The notes below the pieces were generated by a model, which saw only the letters and a program-made list of their open reading frames with translations, did not search any database and had not been told where the DNA came from. Both the position numbers and the translations under genes were made by a program. DNA of 28,707 bases from the IMG/VR virus record IMGVR_UViG_2778261009_000004; one strand, written 5' to 3'. Position 1 is the stretch's first letter, and each line of letters begins with the position of its first letter. Below are positions 19,293-28,581 of this stretch, piece after piece. The stretch comes from a virus. Its lineage: Duplodnaviria; Heunggongvirae; Uroviricota; Caudoviricetes.

Positions 19293-19587
19293 TTTGTCGC
19301 TCCATTCGTTTGCTCTTCACTTGCGGCTAAAAATATAACGTCAAATCACTCAGCATGAAAGAGTGAAAGTTTCAGCGCGTTTCCCTTACATAATCTGTCG
19401 TTTGTATTCTCTTCAGGCATACCGGAAAGACTAGGTATTGTCACACAACCAATACCATCGACAATCGAGATTTATATCTATTCGGTAATGTTTAAATATA
19501 ACAAAACCCCGTAAAAACGAGGTTTATGGGTAATTTGTATTGTTGAATAGCATCTGATGAGAAATTGATGCTAATACTATAAACATG

Positions 19588-19764
19588 CTAGATTAAATCA
19601 ATCTTGATATCATAGCTTTCAAGACCAGTCATTTTTTCCCGTGCAGTAAACTGGATACTGGTAACTTCTTTCCCGGTCTTTTTCTTAAGCTCAATGATTT
19701 TTTTTGTTATATATTCAGAAATATCTGCTTCTGTTTTTGTTTTTAACTCTTCAATGTTCATCAT
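19588..19764 (-). CDS. gnsB: GnsB-like small protein (Gns family)
   Basis: Own translation: MMNIEELKTKTEADISEYITKKIIELKKKTGKEVTSIQFTAREKMTGLESYDIKIDLI, 58 aa, SD AAGAGGAA. Resembles E. coli GnsA/GnsB (about 57 aa, ...FTAREKMTGLESYD...). Below the track's size cut-off. Confidence 0.7.
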   Translation of the reverse strand: MMNIEELKTKTEADISEYITKKIIELKKKTGKEVTSIQFTAREKMTGLESYDIKIDLI

Positions 19765-19933
19765 TTCCTCTTTTAGTCTGTTATGACTGTCCTAGTACAC
19801 AGTAGTGTCAATTATATGGAGCAAACGTATAAAAGATAAGATGAAACATCGCAATAATCAACATACGACGGTCTAAATTTCACACAAACAGATAAAGATG
19901 ATTATCATTTATTATCAATGCATTAGAATCAAA

Positions 19934-20203
19934 TCAATTCAAGAGTCTCATTGCTGCTTCCAGAATTTCTTCTGAAGTTACATGTCGATCCGCTGCTACA
20001 TAAATGACTTTATGATCTCCGGTCAGAGATGGAAACCCTGCAGCCATTACAGTGAGGTGTGTTGTTTCGCCATTTGGATATTCACGCATGATGGTGTTAA
20101 CTCCGGTCATCACTGGCACTACCATTGCTGGTTCAGAGTTAAAAAAAACTATTATTTTTTTCATAATGTTACCGTAATATGTGAGTATCCATCGACTAGA
20201 CAC
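19934..20203 (-). CDS. Hypothetical protein (possibly YnfN-like)
   Basis: 89-aa ORF; an internal start MKKIIVFFNSEP... near 20164 is possible. Lies between gnsB and cspI, where Qin carries ynfN (from memory). Confidence 0.4.
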   Translation of the reverse strand: MSSRWILTYYGNIMKKIIVFFNSEPAMVVPVMTGVNTIMREYPNGETTHLTVMAAGFPSLTGDHKVIYVAADRHVTSEEILEAAMRLLN

Positions 20204-20212
20204 TAAGCAAAA

Positions 20213-20232
20213 AAGCTCCCGAAGGAGCCTTC
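20213..20232 (-). terminator. Putative terminator downstream of cspI
   Basis: Minus strand GGCTCC-TTCG-GGAGC followed by TTTTTTGC. Confidence 0.35.
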
Positions 20233-20435
20233 ATTTTCACTTTCTTAAATCTAACGACAGATGGCTAACATTTAAGTATTGTGAAATATTATCAAATGTA
20301 ATCATCATTGATTTACAAAAGATACATTTTGCCCCGAAAGGATTTCTGTCAGAAACATCAAAAGATGATGTTCTATACTGAGAACCATGGCAACACGGGC
20401 ATCTAAAGTGAATATGGTTTGTAATATTTTCTACC

Positions 20436-20651
20436 TCAAAGTGCCACTACATGAACAGCTGCAGGGCCTTTAGGTCCGTTCTCAATACCAAATTCGACTT
20501 CCTGATTCTCAGTTAACGTTTTGAAATCGTTGCTCTGAATAGCTGAGAAATGCACAAACACATCTTTGCTACCATCTTTCGGCGTGATGAAACCAAAACC
20601 TTTTTCAGGGTTAAACCATTTCACTAAACCAGTCATTTTGTTAGACATCAT
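20436..20651 (-). CDS. cspI: Cold-shock protein CspI
   Basis: (M)[70 protein letters not shown], matching E. coli CspI as remembered. Confidence 0.9.
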
Positions 20652-21011
20652 TATTACCTTTTGAAGAAGTTAGCCCTTGGGCAGAATGGTCCGAAAAAAA
20701 ATATCAGAGAGAAAAACCAACAAGGAAATCTCAAGAGGTACAAATAATAAAATTATAACAATGACTGCTTCAGATAATTTTGTAACAAACCAGAACACCA
20801 TTAACGCATGATTAACCAACCATAGCAAGGATTACTTTTGTAAAGAAAAACACACGAATGAAACAATAGCTTTATTTATTAATAAAACGTGTCATTTTGT
20901 CTAATGACCTTTTATCTTACCCTTAAGATTTCAAGGATTTTGACTCATGGAAGAGTCCTTTTTATTTAAATTTCACATTCAGCGCTAAAAATAATCCGAT
21001 TTAATATTAAT

Positions 21012-22039
<1,028 letters not shown>

Positions 22040-22350
22040 AGATATTTATGATGAGGACGCTCGTGCTTATTGGCAGGATTTTCAATCTTAAAGGAGTACT
22101 GATGCTGCAGATAAGACTCAACTTTTCTGACAATTTTTCTGCTACTTCCAGGAAGACTTGCCGGACGCTCATTCTGGCTGCTGCCTCATAAAACTCCAGC
22201 GTAGCTCCTTCAACACGGTCCATGGCGACATCCAGGCCAAAAATTTCACCGTCAAAGCGTTCTTTGTCCTGTAAGGCTACAGTTACCGTAACTTTATTCT
22301 CAAAATTACGGACTCCTTTCACAACCAGTTCATAGTCTTGAGTCATTGGA

Positions 22351-22566
22351 TTATTCTCCTCTCGCAGCCTTACGCCTGTCTTCTTTAATCTTGAAATAAA
22401 GATTTGTCAGATACGTCAGCAGGCCAAAAACCAGGCTACCCAGCACACCGATTGCAGCCCACTGTGACGGAGTTACTTTATCGAGTAACTGCAATGCCCA
22501 GAAACCAGCATTACCCGCCGATGTGCCATAGGCAACACCTGTTGTTAACTTATCCATTGATTTCAT
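22351..22566 (-). CDS. Class II holin / pinholin (S21-like) with dual-start motif
   Basis: [28 protein letters not shown]...[35 protein letters not shown]: two transmembrane segments, MKSMDK dual start (antiholin/holin), SD GGTGAGGA. The track ORF extends to 22641. Confidence 0.85.
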
Positions 22567-22785
22567 ATCCTCACCCCGATGTACACGGATGGTGCAATAT
22601 GTTTGAAAAGATCGGAGTCTACGGGGTAGTTTTGACAGCACACGTTGTTCTCAACGGCGCTAAAAAAACATACACATTAAAAATGTGGGTAATTATTTTG
22701 AAAGAAAGTCATATATAAAATAATAATACGAGAAATGTTTTCATATTTAGTGTACTGTATACGGCCATTTATACAGGAAAAGCCT

Positions 22786-22956
22786 ATGTCAGAACGTAAA
22801 GACTCAAAATCACGCCGTAATTATCTCGTTAAATGTTCCTGCCCAAACTGCACCCAAGAGTCAGAACACAGTTTTTCAAGAGTACAAAAAGGTGCCCTTT
22901 TGATCTGCCCTCATTGCAACAAAGTATTCCAGACAAATCTTAAAGCTGTAGCCTGA
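22786..22956 (+). CDS. Small zinc-ribbon protein (moron; possibly YdfK/YnaE-like)
   Basis: MSERKDSKSRRNYLVKCSCPNCTQ...ICPHCNKVFQ: CxxC...CxxC. SD AGGAAA 6 nt upstream of ATG 22786. The track ORF starts at 22735. Confidence 0.5.
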   Translation: MSERKDSKSRRNYLVKCSCPNCTQESEHSFSRVQKGALLICPHCNKVFQTNLKAVA

Positions 22957-23019
22957 TTGATTTTATTAGTAACAAGTATTTTTTATATTTTAATAATATA
23001 TTTAAAGCAGATAATAAAA

Positions 23020-23037
23020 AACCCGCCTGAGCGGGTT
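23020..23037. terminator. Intrinsic terminator hairpin (mainly minus-strand orientation)
   Basis: AACCCGC-CTGA-GCGGGTT with an A/T run on the flanks; on the minus strand the hairpin is followed by TTTTTATTAT. Confidence 0.45.
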
Positions 23038-23319
23038 TGAGATTGTGGTGCTTTTTGTGGGAGTCATCCACTTACGCACTTTGTTTTGCGATGCCAGCAG
23101 TTAGCTTCTGCTGTGAAACTATTCATGCAGCAAACCTGCACTTCACCACAATGGTTAGCATACTTTTCCTGATTAAGATTTTGCCAAATATGCTGGCCAT
23201 TGTTTCATGTATTGGACCTCCTTACTTTTTATTAAAGAGATCCAATATTCAATACTCTGTCCGTATCTCTACTCAGGCATCAGCCTTCTTCGTTATCGTA
23301 TACAGACGAGCGATGAATT

Positions 23320-23535
23320 TTAATCAGTAATGATGACATTTGCTGCTGCAGGACCTTTAGCACCACTCTCTATAGAGAAGGTAACCTTTTGACCTTCAAA
23401 TAAGGTTCGATAATTATCATTCTGAATCGCAGAAAAATGCACAAACACATCTTTACTACCATCAACAGGAGAAATAAAGCCGAAACCTTTATCAGCGTTA
23501 AACCATTTTACTAAACCAGTCATTTTATTTGACAT
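23320..23535 (-). CDS. cspB: Cold-shock protein CspB
   Basis: [71 protein letters not shown], matching E. coli CspB as remembered. Confidence 0.9.
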
Positions 23536-23845
23536 TCTACATTCCTTAACTTGAGCCTTTCGGCATAAATGGTTTGCATAACAGAAACGACTTCGTACTT
23601 AATTGGAGAGACTCAAAGAAGGAATAAGTGAATAACACCTGAAATGAGAACTGCTTTAGTAAACTACTTCGTATATCGTCTGTTCTTCAAACCGACGCAG
23701 TCATTAACTCATAGTTGAACATATGAAGCAATGTTTATTTTAGACATCCAGCCACCTTCAACCCTATCAAAAAAGTAGTTTTCTCCAGGAACGTGTGTAT
23801 GGTGCACCAGGTTATCAGTATTAAGGAGTTTTTCTGTCCCCTAAA

Positions 23846-24050
23846 ATGACAGGAATTGTCAAAAACTTTGACTACAAAAGCAGCAAAGGTCTTATATTCC
23901 CATCCGATGGCGTATCGATGCCCAGCTTCACGTTTCAGCTCTCAATCTTCGAGATGCAGAAGAAATTACCACAGGATTACGCGTGGAATTTTGCCGGATA
24001 AATGGTTCGCGTGGACCTTCAACTGCCAATGTTTATCCCGGGATGAGATT
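23846..24050 (+). pseudogene. cspF: cspF/cspH-like cold-shock gene disrupted by a frameshift
   Basis: Frame 1 from ATG 23846 encodes the N-terminal cold-shock-domain motif [22 protein letters not shown] then junk until a stop at 23999. The rest of the domain ([42 protein letters not shown]) lies in another frame from about 23910. The frames switch at GATGGC|GTATCG, about 23909-23912. Confidence 0.55.
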
Positions 24051-24082
24051 CAATATCTCTATTGCCCCATTTAAAGCACAAA

Positions 24083-24102
24083 AACCCGCTTATAAGCGGG
24101 TT
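24083..24102. terminator. Bidirectional intrinsic terminator (candidate tR' for the late operon leader; also 3' of the cspF-like gene)
   Basis: AACCCGC-TTATAA-GCGGGTT followed by TTTTCTACTTTTTT on plus; on minus it is followed by a T-rich run. About 110 nt downstream of the Q stop. Confidence 0.5.
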
Positions 24103-24150
24103 TTCTACTTTTTTCTAAACGTCGGATACACAAAGCCCATCGTTGAGAAA

Positions 24151-24179
24151 ATCTTATCCATGTTTTTTGAAAAATGCAA
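24151..24179 (-). promoter_or_regulatory. Candidate late promoter (PR'-like) immediately downstream of Q
   Basis: Minus strand: -35 TTGCAT (24179..24174), 17-bp spacer, -10 TAAGAT (24156..24151), followed about 50 nt later by the terminator hairpin. Pattern match only. Confidence 0.3.
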
Positions 24180-24210
24180 ACATCATGTCGCCATCTTCAG
24201 CAAAAATCAT

Positions 24211-24963
24211 TTATCTCGTCACCTTCCTCAATTGCGCTTCCGCGTATGCTTCTTCCTGCCAGCACTTTGTTACCAGTTTACCAATGACGTCCGCATACCC
24301 CTTATACCACTGATAATCGGTCAGGTCTGGTACCAGCTTCTGGACATGACGTCGTGCCAGCGTGGTCGGTAAACGACTAAACCGGTTTCCATTACAACGC
24401 CCACAAATCTTATATACCGGTACGCCATGAAACCGGGTTCTTTTTTCATCCAGAACAATCCCTTTACCCTTACACCCTCTGCACGCTGTGCTGACTTCGC
24501 CCTTACCATGGCAATGCTGACATAGTTCCTTTACCCATTCTTCCTTGATTACAGATTCCCCGCGTCTGTAGTGTTTCACCACTTCGCGCAATACATTATA
24601 AAATCCCGTACCTGAACAATGCTCACAGCGAGCCTTACTTGCCGCAGACCTGGAGTAATCAGCAAAGGCAAAATTCACGAGGTAAGGAATAATCTGTAAC
24701 CGGATTTCTTCACTCAATTTGTTCAATGTCGGGTTATCCAGTGCCATCGCGTAATTTAGCAGGCCTTCAATCGCAAACTGAGGGTCCTGAACACCAACTT
24801 TTGCCAGAAATAAGGCCAACCCAAGTGGTGCTTTCGACTGCACCATCCCCTGCGCTGCCATTACATCCGTAATTGTTAAACAACCGGTGCCTGTCGCTGG
24901 AGCGTCATCGCTCAATTTTGGAGATTTTGGGGAGTAATATTTTGGTAAGGCTTCAAGGTTCAT
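24211..24963 (-). CDS. Late-gene antiterminator Q (Qin quuQ-type, four CxxC pairs)
   Basis: 250 aa; CEHCSGTG...CQHCHGKG...CRGCKGKG...CGRCNG zinc-binding motifs; located immediately upstream of the late region. Confidence 0.8.
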
Positions 24964-24976
24964 GCTCGTTCTCCAC

Positions 24977-26065
24977 TTACGCCAGTACGCCAGTTGCCAG
25001 CGCGCGATCGATAAAACGAAATATCAGCTCCAGTTGGGAGCCATACTTCTCTTCAAATGCCACTGTATCCGTATGCAGCTCGTTGTGATGCTTTCTGCAC
25101 AAAGGCAACACAAAGAGATCATGTGCTTTTGTTCCCATTCCGCCCTGCCCGTGACCAATCAGATGATGCGGATCGTCGGCTGGCATACCGCAGCAAGCAC
25201 ACGGCTGTGTCTTAACCCAACGAGTGTATTTCTCCTTAACCCAGCGGCGACGTTTAGGCAGCTTCATGAAAGATTCCGGAGACTCTGGATCAACGGTGAT
25301 GCTTACCACCGTCTTTTCCTGTGGTGGTTTTTGTTGCTGTTGGGCGTAAGGCAACGGTGCAAGATTTTTTGTGCGTTGTTTCAATATGCTGGTGGCGGTC
25401 TGCTCTCCCGGTACGATGTCGCTTTCGCGGTACACCGAGCAGATTTTTTCCGCTGGTAATCCCAGCGAACGACGCGATACAGCCTCAGGTAGTGCATCTA
25501 CCACCTGATTGCAGACCGCCCACCAGGATAATTCAGCCAAAGATAATTCCCGCTCCTGCGTACCGCTTATTGCGTGACGGATGACGTCAATCACCCATGC
25601 TGTCAGATTTTGTTGAGCAAGCAGCTCCAGTGATTCCGATGTCTGGTCACGCAGATGGTTGTCGCAGTGCCAGCACAACACCATTGCGCCGGTACCATAA
25701 CGGTGAATGACTGTTTCAGTGTGATGGTAATCGCCATTAGGCCACTGGCAGGATGTAACATGACGTAATAGCCAGTCAGACAATGCGCCAACGCCGCCAG
25801 CAGCACGAATCACCCGTTCGTTACTAAAAAACGGCAGCAATGTTTTGTCTTCCGCCAGCGGCTGGCGAACGGCAGGAACGACTCCGGATGGCAGATTACG
25901 CATGCTTTTTGGTTCCGGTTCCACCAGCACTCGAGGATTATGAAATATCTGTATGGATTCACGGCCCGGCTTAAGGACCACCAGCCCAAGCTCAGGCACC
26001 AGAACAGGTCTAAGTAATACCCGCACGTTACCTCCAGATCCGTTGCTGGAAAGTGCGGGACGCAC
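24977..26065 (-). CDS. DUF968 protein (YdfU-like) with C-terminal HNH-like Cys/His motif
   Basis: 362-aa ORF; C-terminal ...CACCGMPADDPHHLIGHGQGGMGTKAHDLFVLPLCRKHHNELH resembles an HNH/His-Me finger. True start may be an internal Met (for example about 25903). Confidence 0.6.
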   Translation of the reverse strand: MRPALSSNGSGGNVRVLLRPVLVPELGLVVLKPGRESIQIFHNPRVLVEPEPKSMRNLPSGVVPAVRQPLAEDKTLLPFFSNERVIRAAGGVGALSDWLLRHVTSCQWPNGDYHHTETVIHRYGTGAMVLCWHCDNHLRDQTSESLELLAQQNLTAWVIDVIRHAISGTQERELSLAELSWWAVCNQVVDALPEAVSRRSLGLPAEKICSVYRESDIVPGEQTATSILKQRTKNLAPLPYAQQQQKPPQEKTVVSITVDPESPESFMKLPKRRRWVKEKYTRWVKTQPCACCGMPADDPHHLIGHGQGGMGTKAHDLFVLPLCRKHHNELHTDTVAFEEKYGSQLELIFRFIDRALATGVLA

Positions 26066-26306
26066 GTGGTGGGCGTTCGGAATAAGGCAGCCTGACAGAG
26101 ATTATCCAGTGCCGATAGTCGAGACTGAGAGCTTTCTTAACCTCGAACCCGCGCCTGCGGTAAGAATGAATCAGCCATTCGGCCTGTTCTGCAGTGCATG
26201 GAGGGTGCTGGAACCATTCAGACTTGAATGCGTGAGAATACCGCCCGTGCGTGCAGGCAAGAACGGGCGAATTATCAGAATTGTAATATTTTACGTTGCG
26301 TGCCAT
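26028..26306 (-). CDS. Hypothetical protein
   Basis: 92-aa ORF upstream of, and overlapping, the DUF968 ORF; no family recognised. Confidence 0.35.
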   Translation of the reverse strand: MARNVKYYNSDNSPVLACTHGRYSHAFKSEWFQHPPCTAEQAEWLIHSYRRRGFEVKKALSLDYRHWIISVRLPYSERPPRASRTFQQRIWR

Positions 26307-26372
26307 CGGTTTTCTCCGGTGGCACGGTGTTACTCAGCGGGAGTTCAGCCCCGTGCAAGATTGTAGATGAGT

Positions 26373-26624
26373 TTATTCTTCTGCAAAAGCTGAAAAGCCT
26401 GCTTTTATTCCGATCTCTTTCAGTGCCTGTAATGAAGTGACAAACTCACCTTCGCGCAAGATAAATCCGTCCGTGACCCGAGCATCCACAAAATTAATTA
26501 ACGCAGCTCCATTCTTTCGCAAACACATAATGCGGTAATGACTAACAAGATTTCCATTTTCAACGCACACAGCATAGAGGCCATCTTCACAAAAAATTTT
26601 ACGCAGTTCTTCGATGTTCATCAT
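26373..26624 (-). CDS. rem: Rem-like protein (Qin prophage)
   Basis: 83-aa ORF MMNIEELRKIFCEDGLYAVCVENG... in the position (between hokD and DUF968) and of the length of E. coli rem, from memory. Confidence 0.6.
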   Translation of the reverse strand: MMNIEELRKIFCEDGLYAVCVENGNLVSHYRIMCLRKNGAALINFVDARVTDGFILREGEFVTSLQALKEIGIKAGFSAFAEE

Positions 26625-26754
26625 CAGAATCCTTCCGGATAATTAGCTCTCCCCTTTAAGGGACCATCCCTCTTCTCCCTGCGCGCTACTTAAGTATTTT
26701 TGATTCTATTCCGGCACCGTCCAGAACTTCAAACGCGTTGAAAATAAAAACAAA

Positions 26755-26772
26755 AACCCGCCGAAGCGGGTT
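26755..26772 (-). terminator. Intrinsic terminator of the relB-relE-hokD operon
   Basis: Minus strand AACCCGC-TTCG-GCGGGTT (UUCG loop) followed by TTTTGTTTTTATTTT, about 70 nt after the hokD stop. Confidence 0.6.
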
Positions 26773-26840
26773 AAGTGCGGGTGCGTTGAGGATGCCTGCC
26801 ACATCAGAGGTGGCGAGGGATTTCTCCCTCGCCGGGTCTC

Positions 26841-26996
26841 TTACTCCTCAGGTTCGTAAGCTGTGAAGACAGCGACCTCCGTCTGGCCGGTTCGGATTCG
26901 TACCTCGCAAAGGTCTTTCCTCGTTACCAGTGCCGTCACTATGACGGTTAAACAGATGACGATCAGGGCGATTAACATCGCCTTTTGCTGCTTCAT
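26841..26996 (-). CDS. hokD: Hok-family membrane toxin HokD (RelF)
   Basis: Own translation: MKQQKAMLIALIVICLTVIVTALVTRKDLCEVRIRTGQTEVAVFTAYEPEE (51 aa). Not in the ORF track because it is under 60 aa. Confidence 0.9.
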   Translation of the reverse strand: MKQQKAMLIALIVICLTVIVTALVTRKDLCEVRIRTGQTEVAVFTAYEPEE

Positions 26997-27066
26997 AGCC
27001 TGCTTCTCTGTCAACGCAAAGCAGAAGTGTCACCTTCGGTGCGAAACAGAGATGTCATGCTTTGGT

Positions 27067-27354
27067 TCAGAGAATGCGTTTGACCGCCTCGCTATATACT
27101 TCCGAGCGTTCTCTTTTCCCAACAGAAATCACGAAAACGACAACTTTCTCGTCTATAACCTGGTATACAAGGCGATAGCCTGAAGACCGGAGCTTAATCT
27201 TGTAACAATCAGGCATACCACGGAGCTTGTTTGCTTCAATCCGGGGTGACTCAAGTACTTCAACCAGCTTCTTTTTCAACTGTTCACGTACCGTCGAGCC
27301 CAGCTTTCGCCATTCCTTTAGTGCCCGCTCGTCAAAATCCAGAAAATACGCCAT
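27067..27354 (-). CDS. relE: mRNA interferase toxin RelE
   Basis: 95 aa, MAYFLDFDERALKEWRKLGSTVREQLKKKLVEVLESPRIEANKLRGMPDCYKIKLRSSGYRLVYQV..., matching E. coli RelE as remembered. Confidence 0.93.
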   Translation of the reverse strand: MAYFLDFDERALKEWRKLGSTVREQLKKKLVEVLESPRIEANKLRGMPDCYKIKLRSSGYRLVYQVIDEKVVVFVISVGKRERSEVYSEAVKRIL

Positions 27355-27593
27355 CAGAGTTCATCCAGCGTCACACGTACTGGCTTAGGATTACGAAGCC
27401 GTTCTTTCACTATCTCCACAAGTTCAGCATCTTCATCACTCAGGAGTGTCTGTTTGAACGGCAAGCGTTCATTGTCAGCGATATACTCGAGCATGAGACG
27501 AAGCGCTTCAGAAGGAGTTACACCCATTTTTTCAAGCGCGGCGTAAGAACGCGCTTTAAGTTCATCGTCAATACGCAGGTTAATGCTACCCAT
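27354..27593 (-). CDS. relB: Antitoxin RelB
   Basis: 79 aa, MGSINLRIDDELKARSYAALEKMGVTPSEALRLMLEYIADNERLPFKQTLL...; stop overlaps the relE start. Confidence 0.93.
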   Translation of the reverse strand: MGSINLRIDDELKARSYAALEKMGVTPSEALRLMLEYIADNERLPFKQTLLSDEDAELVEIVKERLRNPKPVRVTLDEL

Positions 27594-27604
27594 GTCTTAC
27601 ACCT

Positions 27605-27630
27605 CTTGTAATTACAAATGTCATTACAAG
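27605..27630 (-). promoter_or_regulatory. relBE operator (relO-like) overlapping the relB promoter/leader
   Basis: Perfect 12-bp palindrome TTGTAATTACAA (27606-27617) plus a second half-site ATTACAAG (27623-27630), 12-37 nt upstream of the relB ATG (SD AGAGGTG). Confidence 0.6.
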
Positions 27631-27923
27631 TATCGCACTACAACATGCTTAGGGCAAGTCACGAAGGAAGTCAGAAAGTAGTCGTAAGAACGGTGATCAC
27701 TGTCCGCTTTGTGCCAGGAGCAGCCATTGCTAAGTCCATCCTGTATTGTGCAGGTCAGCTCATTTTTAAAGAGTCCGGCCATCATCTTACTGGTACAGAC
27801 ACCATATACTTTGTGACGGTCAGGCTACATATGCACAACTCAACTTATTCATCTATTTTTTGCTTTAGCATGTCAGTGTTGCTTTCTCGTCGGCGGGTGA
27901 GCGGTGACCTGACCTGTCGATAA
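27618..27923 (+). CDS. Hypothetical protein (possibly YdfV-like)
   Basis: 101-aa ORF between relB and flxA; composition not convincingly protein-like. Kept only because Qin carries a gene of about this length here (from memory). Confidence 0.25.
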   Translation: MSLQVSHYNMLRASHEGSQKVVVRTVITVRFVPGAAIAKSILYCAGQLIFKESGHHLTGTDTIYFVTVRLHMHNSTYSSIFCFSMSVLLSRRRVSGDLTCR

Positions 27924-28075
27924 AGGAACGTAGCACGTTTTATGCAACACCCGCATGCGGCAGAAAATTATTGCCGAACGTTTACCCCTGTCAACAAGCT
28001 TTACTTTCTGAGGCGCGCCAGCCCGCTAGGAAAACAATCTGAACATCAAACAATTAATGACACAAGAAATACGAT

Positions 28076-28102
28076 TAAAGATTTTTTTGTGCATGCCGAT
28101 AG
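28076..28102 (+). promoter_or_regulatory. Sigma-28 (FliA) promoter of flxA
   Basis: TAAA (28076-28079), 15-nt spacer, GCCGATAG (28095-28102), against consensus TAAA-N15-GCCGATAA; about 25 nt upstream of the flxA SD AAGGAGA. Confidence 0.65.
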
Positions 28103-28125
28103 TGCTTTTTTAAAAGGAGAAATCT

Positions 28126-28458
28126 ATGTCTGTCACAATTCAGGGAAATACCTCAACCGTTATTTCAAACAACTCCGCCCCGGAAGGAACATCAGAAATA
28201 GCCAAAATCACAAGACAAATTCAGGTGCTGACTGAAAAGCTTGGGAAAATCTCATCGGAAGAGGGGATGACGACACAGCAGAAAAAAGAAATGGCTGCAT
28301 TGGTACAGAAGCAAATTGAAAGCCTCAGGGCTCAACTGGAGCAGTTGTTAAGGCAGCAGGCAGAGAAAAAGAATGAAGACGCGACAGTTCAGCCTGATAA
28401 AAAAGAAGAGAAAAAAGACGATACAAATACCGCTGGCACCATTGATATTTACGTCTAA
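28126..28458 (+). CDS. flxA: FlxA (FliA-regulated protein)
   Basis: 110 aa, MSVTIQGNTSTVISNNSAPEGTSEIAKITRQIQVLTEKLGK..., coiled-coil, Q/K/E-rich, matching E. coli FlxA as remembered. Confidence 0.85.
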   Translation: MSVTIQGNTSTVISNNSAPEGTSEIAKITRQIQVLTEKLGKISSEEGMTTQQKKEMAALVQKQIESLRAQLEQLLRQQAEKKNEDATVQPDKKEEKKDDTNTAGTIDIYV

Positions 28459-28472
28459 GTGACAGCCGTATT

Positions 28473-28495
28473 GTGGCCCTCATCGGGCCACTTTT
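28473..28495 (+). terminator. Intrinsic terminator of flxA
   Basis: GTGGCCC-TCATC-GGGCCAC followed by TTTT, 15 nt after the flxA stop. Confidence 0.55.
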
Positions 28496-28581
28496 CGCCA
28501 TCAGCCTTTTCTTTAAAGACATATTATCTTTGTATCATTTCTGATAGTTAACATTACAAGATATAAGTAATGGACGCACTC

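Follow-up and report, generated by a model that had tools for sequence, protein, structure and literature searches.

Why does one phage genome close three different transcription units with hairpins built on the same short stem? The question is raised by the IMG/VR virus record IMGVR_UViG_2778261009_000004, a 28,707-nt stretch of DNA from a member of the Caudoviricetes, called the window here, in which three hairpins, T1 (23020-23037), T2 (24083-24102), and T3 (26755-26772), share the stem AACCCGC/GCGGGTT. The answer considered probable is that they are canonical minus-strand terminators partitioning the path to lysis, and that their stem has been reused through cassette recombination combined with selection. 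Compact terminators would be copied or retained as cassettes come and go by recombination at or beside the hairpins, with selection for a short, strong, and leak-proof terminator as an added factor. The value added is modest: it lies in the assignment of T2 as tR', the terminator of a lambda-type late operon, in an insulation logic for the region, and in a terminator type that appears to be located at, and duplicated by, lambdoid cassette junctions.

Three Terminators on the Path to Lysis

By sequence comparison, the window is identified as a lambdoid prophage of the Qin/Tritos type. Positions 19583-28581 are 96-99% identical to the cryptic prophage Qin of Escherichia coli K-12, which carries the same three hairpins (K-12 positions 1641039-56, 1642362-81, and 1645033-50), and Tritos, an intact temperate phage, matches most of the window at 94-97% identity. 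The terminators themselves are ordinary and already present in K-12 Qin, where the T2 loop is TCATCA, unlike the TTATAA of the window; there are three copies in the window, three in K-12 Qin, and four in Tritos. With the K-12 annotation mapped onto the window, the minus-strand order is relB-relE-hokD (26841-27593), T3, rem (26373-26624), orf92, ydfU, the antiterminator gene Q (ydfT), T2, cspB, T1, and then the holin gene essQ (22351-22566), the first gene of the lysis cassette, with the other lysis genes. On the plus strand, cspF (23846-24074) lies between T2 and cspB, and ynfU (22786-22956) between T1 and essQ. The sequence-only reading had set the hairpins beside a zinc-ribbon gene and cspB, cspF and Q, and the hokD operon. 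Mapping onto Qin confirms these names, with the correction that cspF in the window is a frameshifted, 3'-truncated pseudogene, as comparison with K-12 reveals.

Scanning the window for AACCCGC-N{3,8}-GCGGGTT yields exactly these three matches, with the plus-strand loops CTGA (T1), TTATAA (T2), and CGAA (T3), all as first described. The pattern occurs in none of 100 dinucleotide-preserving shuffles of the window, and the three hairpins are also the top three hits of the region in a consensus terminator scan. The nominal 7-bp stem consists of a 5-bp GC core, CCCGC/GCGGG, extended by A:T pairs borrowed from the flanking A-tract (upstream) and T-tract (downstream). Each hairpin thereby has five GC pairs, two to five A:U pairs, and a 4-nt loop, which makes it a perfect, GC-rich, short-loop hairpin; the T2 stem is longer by one T:A pair, leaving a TATA loop. 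Runs of T follow the stem on the minus strand (TTTTTTAT for T1, TTTTTGTG for T2, and TTTTTGTT for T3), long and confined to this strand in T1 and T3, but present on both strands in T2. As RNA, T1 reads AACCCGC-UCAG-GCGGGUU followed by UUUUUUAUUAU, and T3 has a UUCG tetraloop. The minus-strand hairpin energies are -12.8, -17.5, and -12.8 kcal/mol for T1, T2, and T3.

All three lie in non-coding DNA at the 3' ends of units: T1 282 nt after the cspB stop codon and about 450 nt before essQ, T2 after the leader of the late promoter PR' and, on the other strand, after the cspF pseudogene, and T3 68 nt after the hokD stop codon, ahead of rem-orf92-ydfU-Q. From this anatomy and setting, T1, T2, and T3 are classified as canonical intrinsic (Rho-independent) terminators for the minus strand, i.e., for the rightward or late direction of transcription. 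Together they would form a fail-safe chain, in which the promoters of a toxin-antitoxin module and of a cold-shock moron are kept from firing Q and the lysis genes, T1 and T2 shielding the cassette that begins with essQ.

Rarity of the Stem in the Host

Whether three copies within a few kilobases mean anything depends on how often the host uses the same stem. In the K-12 sample (517 kb of non-prophage DNA in twelve stretches, plus 65 kb of prophage DNA from Qin, DLP12, and Rac), the 7-bp stem is absent from the 517 kb and occurs four times in the prophage DNA, three times in Qin and once in DLP12. It is hence not a ubiquitous E. coli terminator stem; ubiquity at E. coli terminators with no enrichment at moron boundaries was the outcome that the sequence-only reading had named as fatal to its proposal. 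About 60 perfect-stem terminator-like hairpins are found in the same 517 kb; none has an A-flanked CCCGC core, and a few carry longer GCCCGC or CCCGCC stems. The 95% upper bound of three copies per 517 kb translates into at most 0.02 copies in 3.75 kb, against three seen. Three copies are far beyond chance, and the observation is statistically sound.

The copy in DLP12, at 37254-37273 of L004 (L-numbers denote the loci compared, L004 being K-12 DLP12), is a terminator for the plus strand, AAACCCGC-CGTCGA-GCGGGTTTTTCC, and precedes the holin gene essD by 125 nt. Its sequence recurs in the IMG/VR loci L100, L105, and L156, and no terminator detail was found in the literature on the essD regulatory region of DLP12.

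T2 as tR' of a Lambda-Type Late Switch

T2 can be assigned to a known late switch. The Q protein, 250 amino acids long and encoded at 24211-24963 on the minus strand (ydfT/quuQ type), matches lambda Q (PDB 7UBM, E = 5.8e-36) and the Pfam family Antiterm (PF03589, E = 2.9e-54), and these matches place it in the lambda-Q family, its gene lying immediately upstream of the predicted T2 promoter. Thirty nt past its stop codon, the minus strand carries a PR'-like late promoter (24136-24180), TTTGCA-18 nt-TAAGAT-TTTCTC-AACGATGGG, with the -35 element at 24180-24175, the -10 element at 24156-24151, and the predicted +1 at 24144. It is recognized by sequence reading and by its match to lambda PR', TTGACT-17 nt-TAAATT-TGACTC-AACGATGGG: the 12-mer CTCAACGATGGG occurs unchanged in lambda PR' (44584-44595), at an equal distance from the -10 element. 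For lambda, the sigma70-dependent pause element found where the 6S transcript starts is AACGAT, and the lambda coordinates agree with a 194-nt RNA ending at the T-tract of tR'. By homology, AACGATGGG in the window is read as an initial transcribed sequence with a sigma70-dependent pause element like that of lambda. On the predicted PR' transcript, the T2 stem would span +43 to +62 and the U-tract would extend to about +67, giving a terminated RNA of about 65 nt.

The likeness to lambda, therefore, covers the order of a lambda-Q-family gene, a sigma70 promoter with an identical AACGATGGG, and an intrinsic terminator before the lysis genes. Several details differ. The leader has about 65 nt in the window and 194 nt in lambda; the lambda tR' stem is longer (CCCGAAAC...GTTTCGGG), whereas that of the window is a minimal 5-bp GC stem; and the lambda Q-binding element, which occupies the -35 to -10 region, has a counterpart in the window that is unrelated in sequence. 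Moreover, the cspF, cspB, and ynfU morons and a second terminator, T1, sit between tR' and the holin gene in the window.

Comparison of 80 IMG/VR loci encoding Q of at least 95% identity supports the assignment. As far as about +15, the promoter region is conserved in every relative together with Q. Seventy-six of the 80 loci contain AACGATGGG, and these have a terminator at unchanged distance; the terminators of the Q loci are nearly all of the form (A)ACCCGC/GCGGGT(T), with TGATGA, TTATAA, TGATAA, CGCTGA, CACTGA, or TGTTGA as the loop. Pairing is maintained over 91.5% of stem cells in 13 T2 variants, and four pairs have changed on both sides, for example from C:G to A:U in L091, for which L075 provides a single-change intermediate. 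At least seven unrelated downstream sequences start directly past the T2 T-tract. SfV, SKA5-type, and other phages lack csp genes, yet have a T2-type terminator at the same promoter distance, and the SfV record annotates a terminator at this position. Because it is co-inherited with Q at a fixed distance from the promoter, also in phages without csp genes, T2 is assigned to the Q-PR'-tR' module as its tR' and not as a moron terminator. The proposal that T2 had arrived with a cspF/cspB moron is overturned by this comparison, T2 being present in phages that lack the moron.

T2 would stop the short transcript (about 65 nt) of a constitutive PR' unless the polymerase has been modified by the lambda-family Q, and Q-dependent read-through of both T2 and T1 is expected. 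Having T-runs on both strands, T2 can also stop plus-strand transcripts arriving from the cspF side. With T2 re-assigned, the PR'-tR' region of Qin/Tritos/SfV-type phages can be mapped concretely, down to a predicted leader RNA of 65 nt.

T1 and the Cold-Shock Block

T1 belongs to a block that appears to be moron-like, since its GC content deviates and related phages lack it. The GC content of the csp/ynfU block is 0.34-0.41, versus 0.46-0.54 in the flanking phage genes, and the phages SfV, SKA5, mEp460, and Stx2c share Q without it. Among 5426 E. coli genomes, ynfU-T1-cspB is present whole (1621 genomes) or absent, with no partial inheritance. The two genes are convergent across T1; ynfU encodes a small zinc-ribbon protein (Pfam YnfU, PF23499, E = 4.7e-31, in line with the K-12 annotation). 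The predicted cspB moron transcript (23039-23696, minus strand) comprises a 5' untranslated region (UTR) of the cspA thermoregulator type (Rfam RF01766, 158.8 bits), the cspB open reading frame (ORF; 23320-23535), and a 3' region running to T1. As the cspB stop codon has no terminator of its own, the transcript would run through 282 nt of structured region to T1, the fold z-score being -3.9 for 23240-23010 on the minus strand. In L117, a relative of about 78% identity, both arms of the T1 stem are preserved, with AGCCA as the loop (TCAG in the window) and a diverged 5' flank.

T1 would stop cold-shock cspB transcripts before the holin and endolysin genes. Its place between a cold-inducible promoter and the holin gene suggests a role in keeping these transcripts out of the lysis cassette; in lytic growth, Q-modified polymerase would have to pass T1 as well as T2. 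The moron promoters are consensus matches only; cspB is delimited by its cspA-type 5'UTR and T1, and relBE-hokD has T3.

The pseudogene on the other side of this block has a 1-nt deletion near 23919, which shifts the frame, and a 258-bp deletion relative to K-12, which removes the last cspF codons and the small gene ynfS. At the corresponding junction, 24035/24036, identity to K-12 jumps from 95.9% to 99.1%. The phage HannyBb was considered as a case of a csp block combined with a different Q and was rejected, its break at 24035 being the 258-bp ynfS indel only and the phage being K-12-like.

Within the cspB 3' region (23240-23039, minus strand), an 11-codon ORF, MKQWPAYLAKS, starts with ATG at 23207 behind a perfect TAAGGAGGT Shine-Dalgarno sequence. 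Neither is conserved in the diverged L117, whereas a central stretch, AGCATATTT...GAAAGTATGCT.ACCATTGTG, is. No attenuator is proposed for this region, since the 11-codon ORF is unconserved in L117; an Rfam match to Trp_leader (23.8 bits) is weak and driven by the terminator.

T3 and the hokD Unit

Among 80 phage loci with an identical HokD, 77 are informative for T3, and 65 of these have the exact hairpin with its TTCG loop after hokD; the others show point mutations, truncations, or no hairpin. T3 accompanies hokD whether the upstream DNA is relBE or something else, and at least nine different sequences follow it. On this pattern, T3 belongs to hokD and would end the relB-relE-hokD unit. It would halt relBE-hokD transcripts before rem-orf92-ydfU-Q, and the arrangement suggests that toxin-antitoxin transcription is thereby kept from expressing Q.

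Several breaks in relatives fall inside the T3 hairpin itself (L246/L288, L275, and L251), and L284 (about 1720-1790) has a 32-nt insertion in the T3 loop, edged by a short duplication (GCTTC...GCGCTTC). With the seven or more contexts after T2, the nine or more after T3, and the repeat-flanked cassettes described below, the sequence data indicate that the hairpins mark mosaic junctions, the breaks in relatives lying in or right after them. The claim that the hairpins mark junctions is, therefore, sustained; the cspF junction at 24035/24036 is off-hairpin.

Terminator Repeats around Cassettes

In each of three independent comparisons, an accessory cassette is bracketed by 19-29-nt direct repeats of the resident terminator. 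In L074, a 29-nt tR' segment, AACCCGCCGCTGAGCGGGTTTTTTGTGCC, is single; L076 has two copies, with three differences, around a 648-bp insert encoding a lipoprotein-signal protein (a moron), after which the second repeat copy and then the ancestral flank follow. The repeat match of this type extends 5 nt past the T-tract. L220 has a 19-nt stretch of T3 once, and Tritos has it on either side of a 1.85-kb cassette. A TTGACA promoter-like site opens this cassette, whose products are a hypothetical protein and one of the ImmA/IrrE type. In L226, two identical 23-nt copies, AACCCGCTTCGGCGGGTTTTGTT, surround a 1.33-kb cassette encoding a helix-turn-helix (HTH) protein, a HEXXH protease, and a small Cys-rich protein. 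As the L076 and L226 repeats include the loop and bases past the T-tract, these copies are homologous and not convergent. The hairpins would be substrates of the recombination that moves cassettes, not bystanders.

These repeats also bear on the idea from which the analysis set out, which, taken literally, means that each terminator entered with its own moron cassette, a promoter-gene-terminator unit, the stem reflecting a common moron source. Morons are defined as accessory genes with their own promoter and terminator (PMC3594210). T3 does travel with hokD, with or without relBE upstream, a terminator of this type closes the cassettes of Tritos and L226, and the csp block is low in GC. Nevertheless, T2 is not moron-borne but part of the Q-PR'-tR' module, the rem cassette has no terminator, and the downstream repeat of a flanked cassette adjoins the ancestral flank, so that it matches the resident and not a foreign terminator. 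A second csp moron in the window, cspI, ends in a different stem, GCTCC-TTCG-GGAGC (20215-20228, minus strand); the csp paralogues, therefore, do not share a terminator. Arrival with the morons, in this literal form, is accordingly judged improbable. Compared with the lambdoid moron concept of HK97 and HK022 (PMC3594210), the csp block and the cassettes after hokD-T3 fit the definition, whereas the csp moron is bordered on its Q side by the tR' of the phage itself. The concept also does not predict a far-edge terminator that is a near-copy of the resident one, as seen in three relatives.

A closer parallel is offered by the promoter-early stem-loop (PeSL) elements of T4-type phages, in which repeated promoter/stem-loop units recombine, so that genes are shuffled and mini-circles arise (PMC2839356, PMC4122927). 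Both systems have short, conserved terminator stem-loops repeated in plastic genome regions, with repeats bounding the indels of close relatives. A promoter-like TCTGGTT(G/T)ACAA follows a T3-type terminator in three contexts and may form a composite terminator-promoter with it. The hosts of PeSL are T4-like myoviruses with dozens of copies, whereas the phages compared here are temperate lambdoid siphoviruses with three to four copies per genome, and the repeat is 19-29 nt long, has no fixed promoter partner, and is known from sequence comparison. At most, the window-type element works like PeSL; it is not classed as one.

Extending this analogy, the hairpins might represent a portable junction element of the Qin/Tritos/SfV group, i.e., a compact terminator (A-tract, CCCGC stem, loop, GCGGG, and T-tract) measuring about 20-30 nt, in some cases with a TCTGGTTGACA promoter behind it, that would serve, besides insulating Q and the lysis genes, as a homology patch where accessory (moron or defence-like) cassettes are inserted, swapped, or deleted, possibly via circular intermediates. 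This extension is advanced tentatively and held to be less likely than not. A terminator recurring at mosaic junctions and around cassettes constitutes a testable mechanism for the movement of morons and small defence-like cassettes between lambdoid prophages, and would extend to them a cassette-junction idea so far documented for T4-type phages.

A position at cassette boundaries, direct repeats around cassettes, junctions within a hairpin, and the 32-nt insertion in the L284 loop might also be expected if the hairpins were primarily palindromic sites of recombination or processing, of the attC, repetitive extragenic palindromic (REP), or site-specific-recombinase type. Such a role is very improbable. 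With 18-20 nt, a perfect stem, an A-tract, and a T-tract, the hairpins have textbook terminator anatomy, and they are placed where transcription units end, T2 occupying the tR' position behind a lambda-type late promoter. The neighbourhood has no integron-type integrase, and Rfam gave only weak, terminator-driven matches for the hairpins.

Recombination or Convergence

Terminators recombined along with cassettes would account for the repeats in relatives; T1, T2, and T3 of the window share the stem and T-tract alone. This leaves the common descent of the three unproven and convergence a serious rival. According to this explanation, three unrelated terminators arrived separately at one short optimum: five GC pairs, with C prevailing in the 5' arm and G in the 3' arm, a stable tetraloop, and lengthening by A/U. 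In a compact phage genome, any position at which leakage is lethal would call for a terminator that is small, very efficient, and to some extent bidirectional.

The case for convergence draws on occurrences outside the group. Three native E. coli terminators of the Chen et al. 2013 set, ECK120010818, ECK120010869, and ECK120015170, are given in the list of PMC7843447 as AAACCCGC-TTCG-GCGGGTTT, and this 18-nt hairpin thus occurs at native K-12 terminators that serve as strong parts. T3 is identical to them over 18 nt, the RNA hairpin being AAACCCGC-UUCG-GCGGGUUU; they are chromosomal and away from phage module junctions, unlike T3. ECK120010818, which follows rnpB, occurs in 5425 of the 5426 genomes; for ECK120015170, no location was found by megablast. 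The Rfam consensus of rsmX (Pseudomonas) terminates in the same hairpin.

How phages use the core speaks for a preference. A motif scan of IMG/VR returned at least 120 stretches, and the stem comparison used the 1.1 Mb flanking the 120 occurrences listed, together with the K-12 samples. In this 1.1 Mb, at least two CCCGC...GCGGG hairpins are found in 28 loci, and additional AA-flanked CCCGC copies number 10, versus 23 for the other 31 all-GC 5-bp cores together. Recurrent in phage loci and scarce in the K-12 sample, CCCGC is a design that phages favour and commonly employ more than once per genome. A thermodynamic optimum as the sole reason for the stem was ruled out, because CCCGC is not the most stable of the 32 cores (-12.2 kcal/mol vs an optimum of -13.0). 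This argues against pure convergence, as does the fact that nine other cores tie with CCCGC and are hardly used, that the roughly 60 chromosomal hairpins use many other stems and never this one, and that the cassette-flanking repeats extend into the loop and 5 nt past the T-tract, which is homology. On balance, convergence alone is held to be rather unlikely.

Several observations nonetheless count against the preferred combination of cassette recombination and selection. Beyond stem and T-tract, T1, T2, and T3 have no common loop or flank sequence. The stem with a UUCG loop stands at native chromosomal terminators, e.g., after rnpB, as a generally favoured design would, and among the matches listed, the motif is widespread in phage contigs with a GC content from 0.27 to 0.65 and with unrelated flanks. 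The mosaic junction at 24035/24036 is away from any terminator, and rem came without one. A hybrid with the T2 5' flank and the T1 3' flank, the footprint expected from a csp-less ancestor or a deletion, gave no hit in IMG/VR. Finally, efficient termination by the three hairpins is deduced from anatomy. The features observed directly are gene order and strand, hairpin and U-tract anatomy, promoter homology, co-inheritance, rarity in the host, clustering at junctions, and repeat-flanked cassettes.

The Slot Downstream of hokD-T3

The position right after hokD-T3 is a hot spot, occupied by at least nine alternative inserts (rem on the minus strand in the window, two different HTH/ImmA-IrrE-type cassettes, and others) or by nothing. 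The slot corresponds to 26754-26324 in the window, to 36257-38179 in L008, and to 1741-3074 in L226, and is also seen in L215, L218, L229, L258, and others; located ahead of the Q operon, it has the look of a hot spot for accessory or defence genes. A promoter-like CTGGTT[GT]ACA lies 13-20 nt past T3-type terminators in three unrelated contexts and is absent at T1 and T2. Its sites include L220 (about 1760-1770), L008 (36271-36280 and 38134-38143), and L215, with 42 occurrences in 780 kb of related loci; judging by sequence, the motif could serve as a common -35 region or as a site for a regulator.

A good sigma70-like site, TTTGCA-16-TACAAT (26387-26360, minus strand), is found where rem ends, ahead of orf92-ydfU-Q, and its TACAAT is retained in relatives without rem. 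Expression of Q may, therefore, start at a promoter located beyond T3 instead of depending on read-through.

The hokD 3'UTR together with T3 (26832-26751, minus strand) gives a full-length match to IsrK, a small RNA of Salmonella Gifsy-1 (RF01394), at 25.7 bits, below the gathering score of 50. The region has the same three-hairpin layout as IsrK, with AAAUC as the first loop, and may be a distant IsrK homologue, within the limits of a sub-threshold match. IsrK is also located upstream of a prophage Q gene.

The remaining observations concern neighbouring genes. The cspI moron (20390-20806, minus strand) has a cspA-type thermoregulator match of its own (110 bits). Between ydfU and rem, a 92-codon ORF (26028-26306, minus strand) is annotated as a hypothetical protein in Tritos and has no counterpart in the K-12 RefSeq table.

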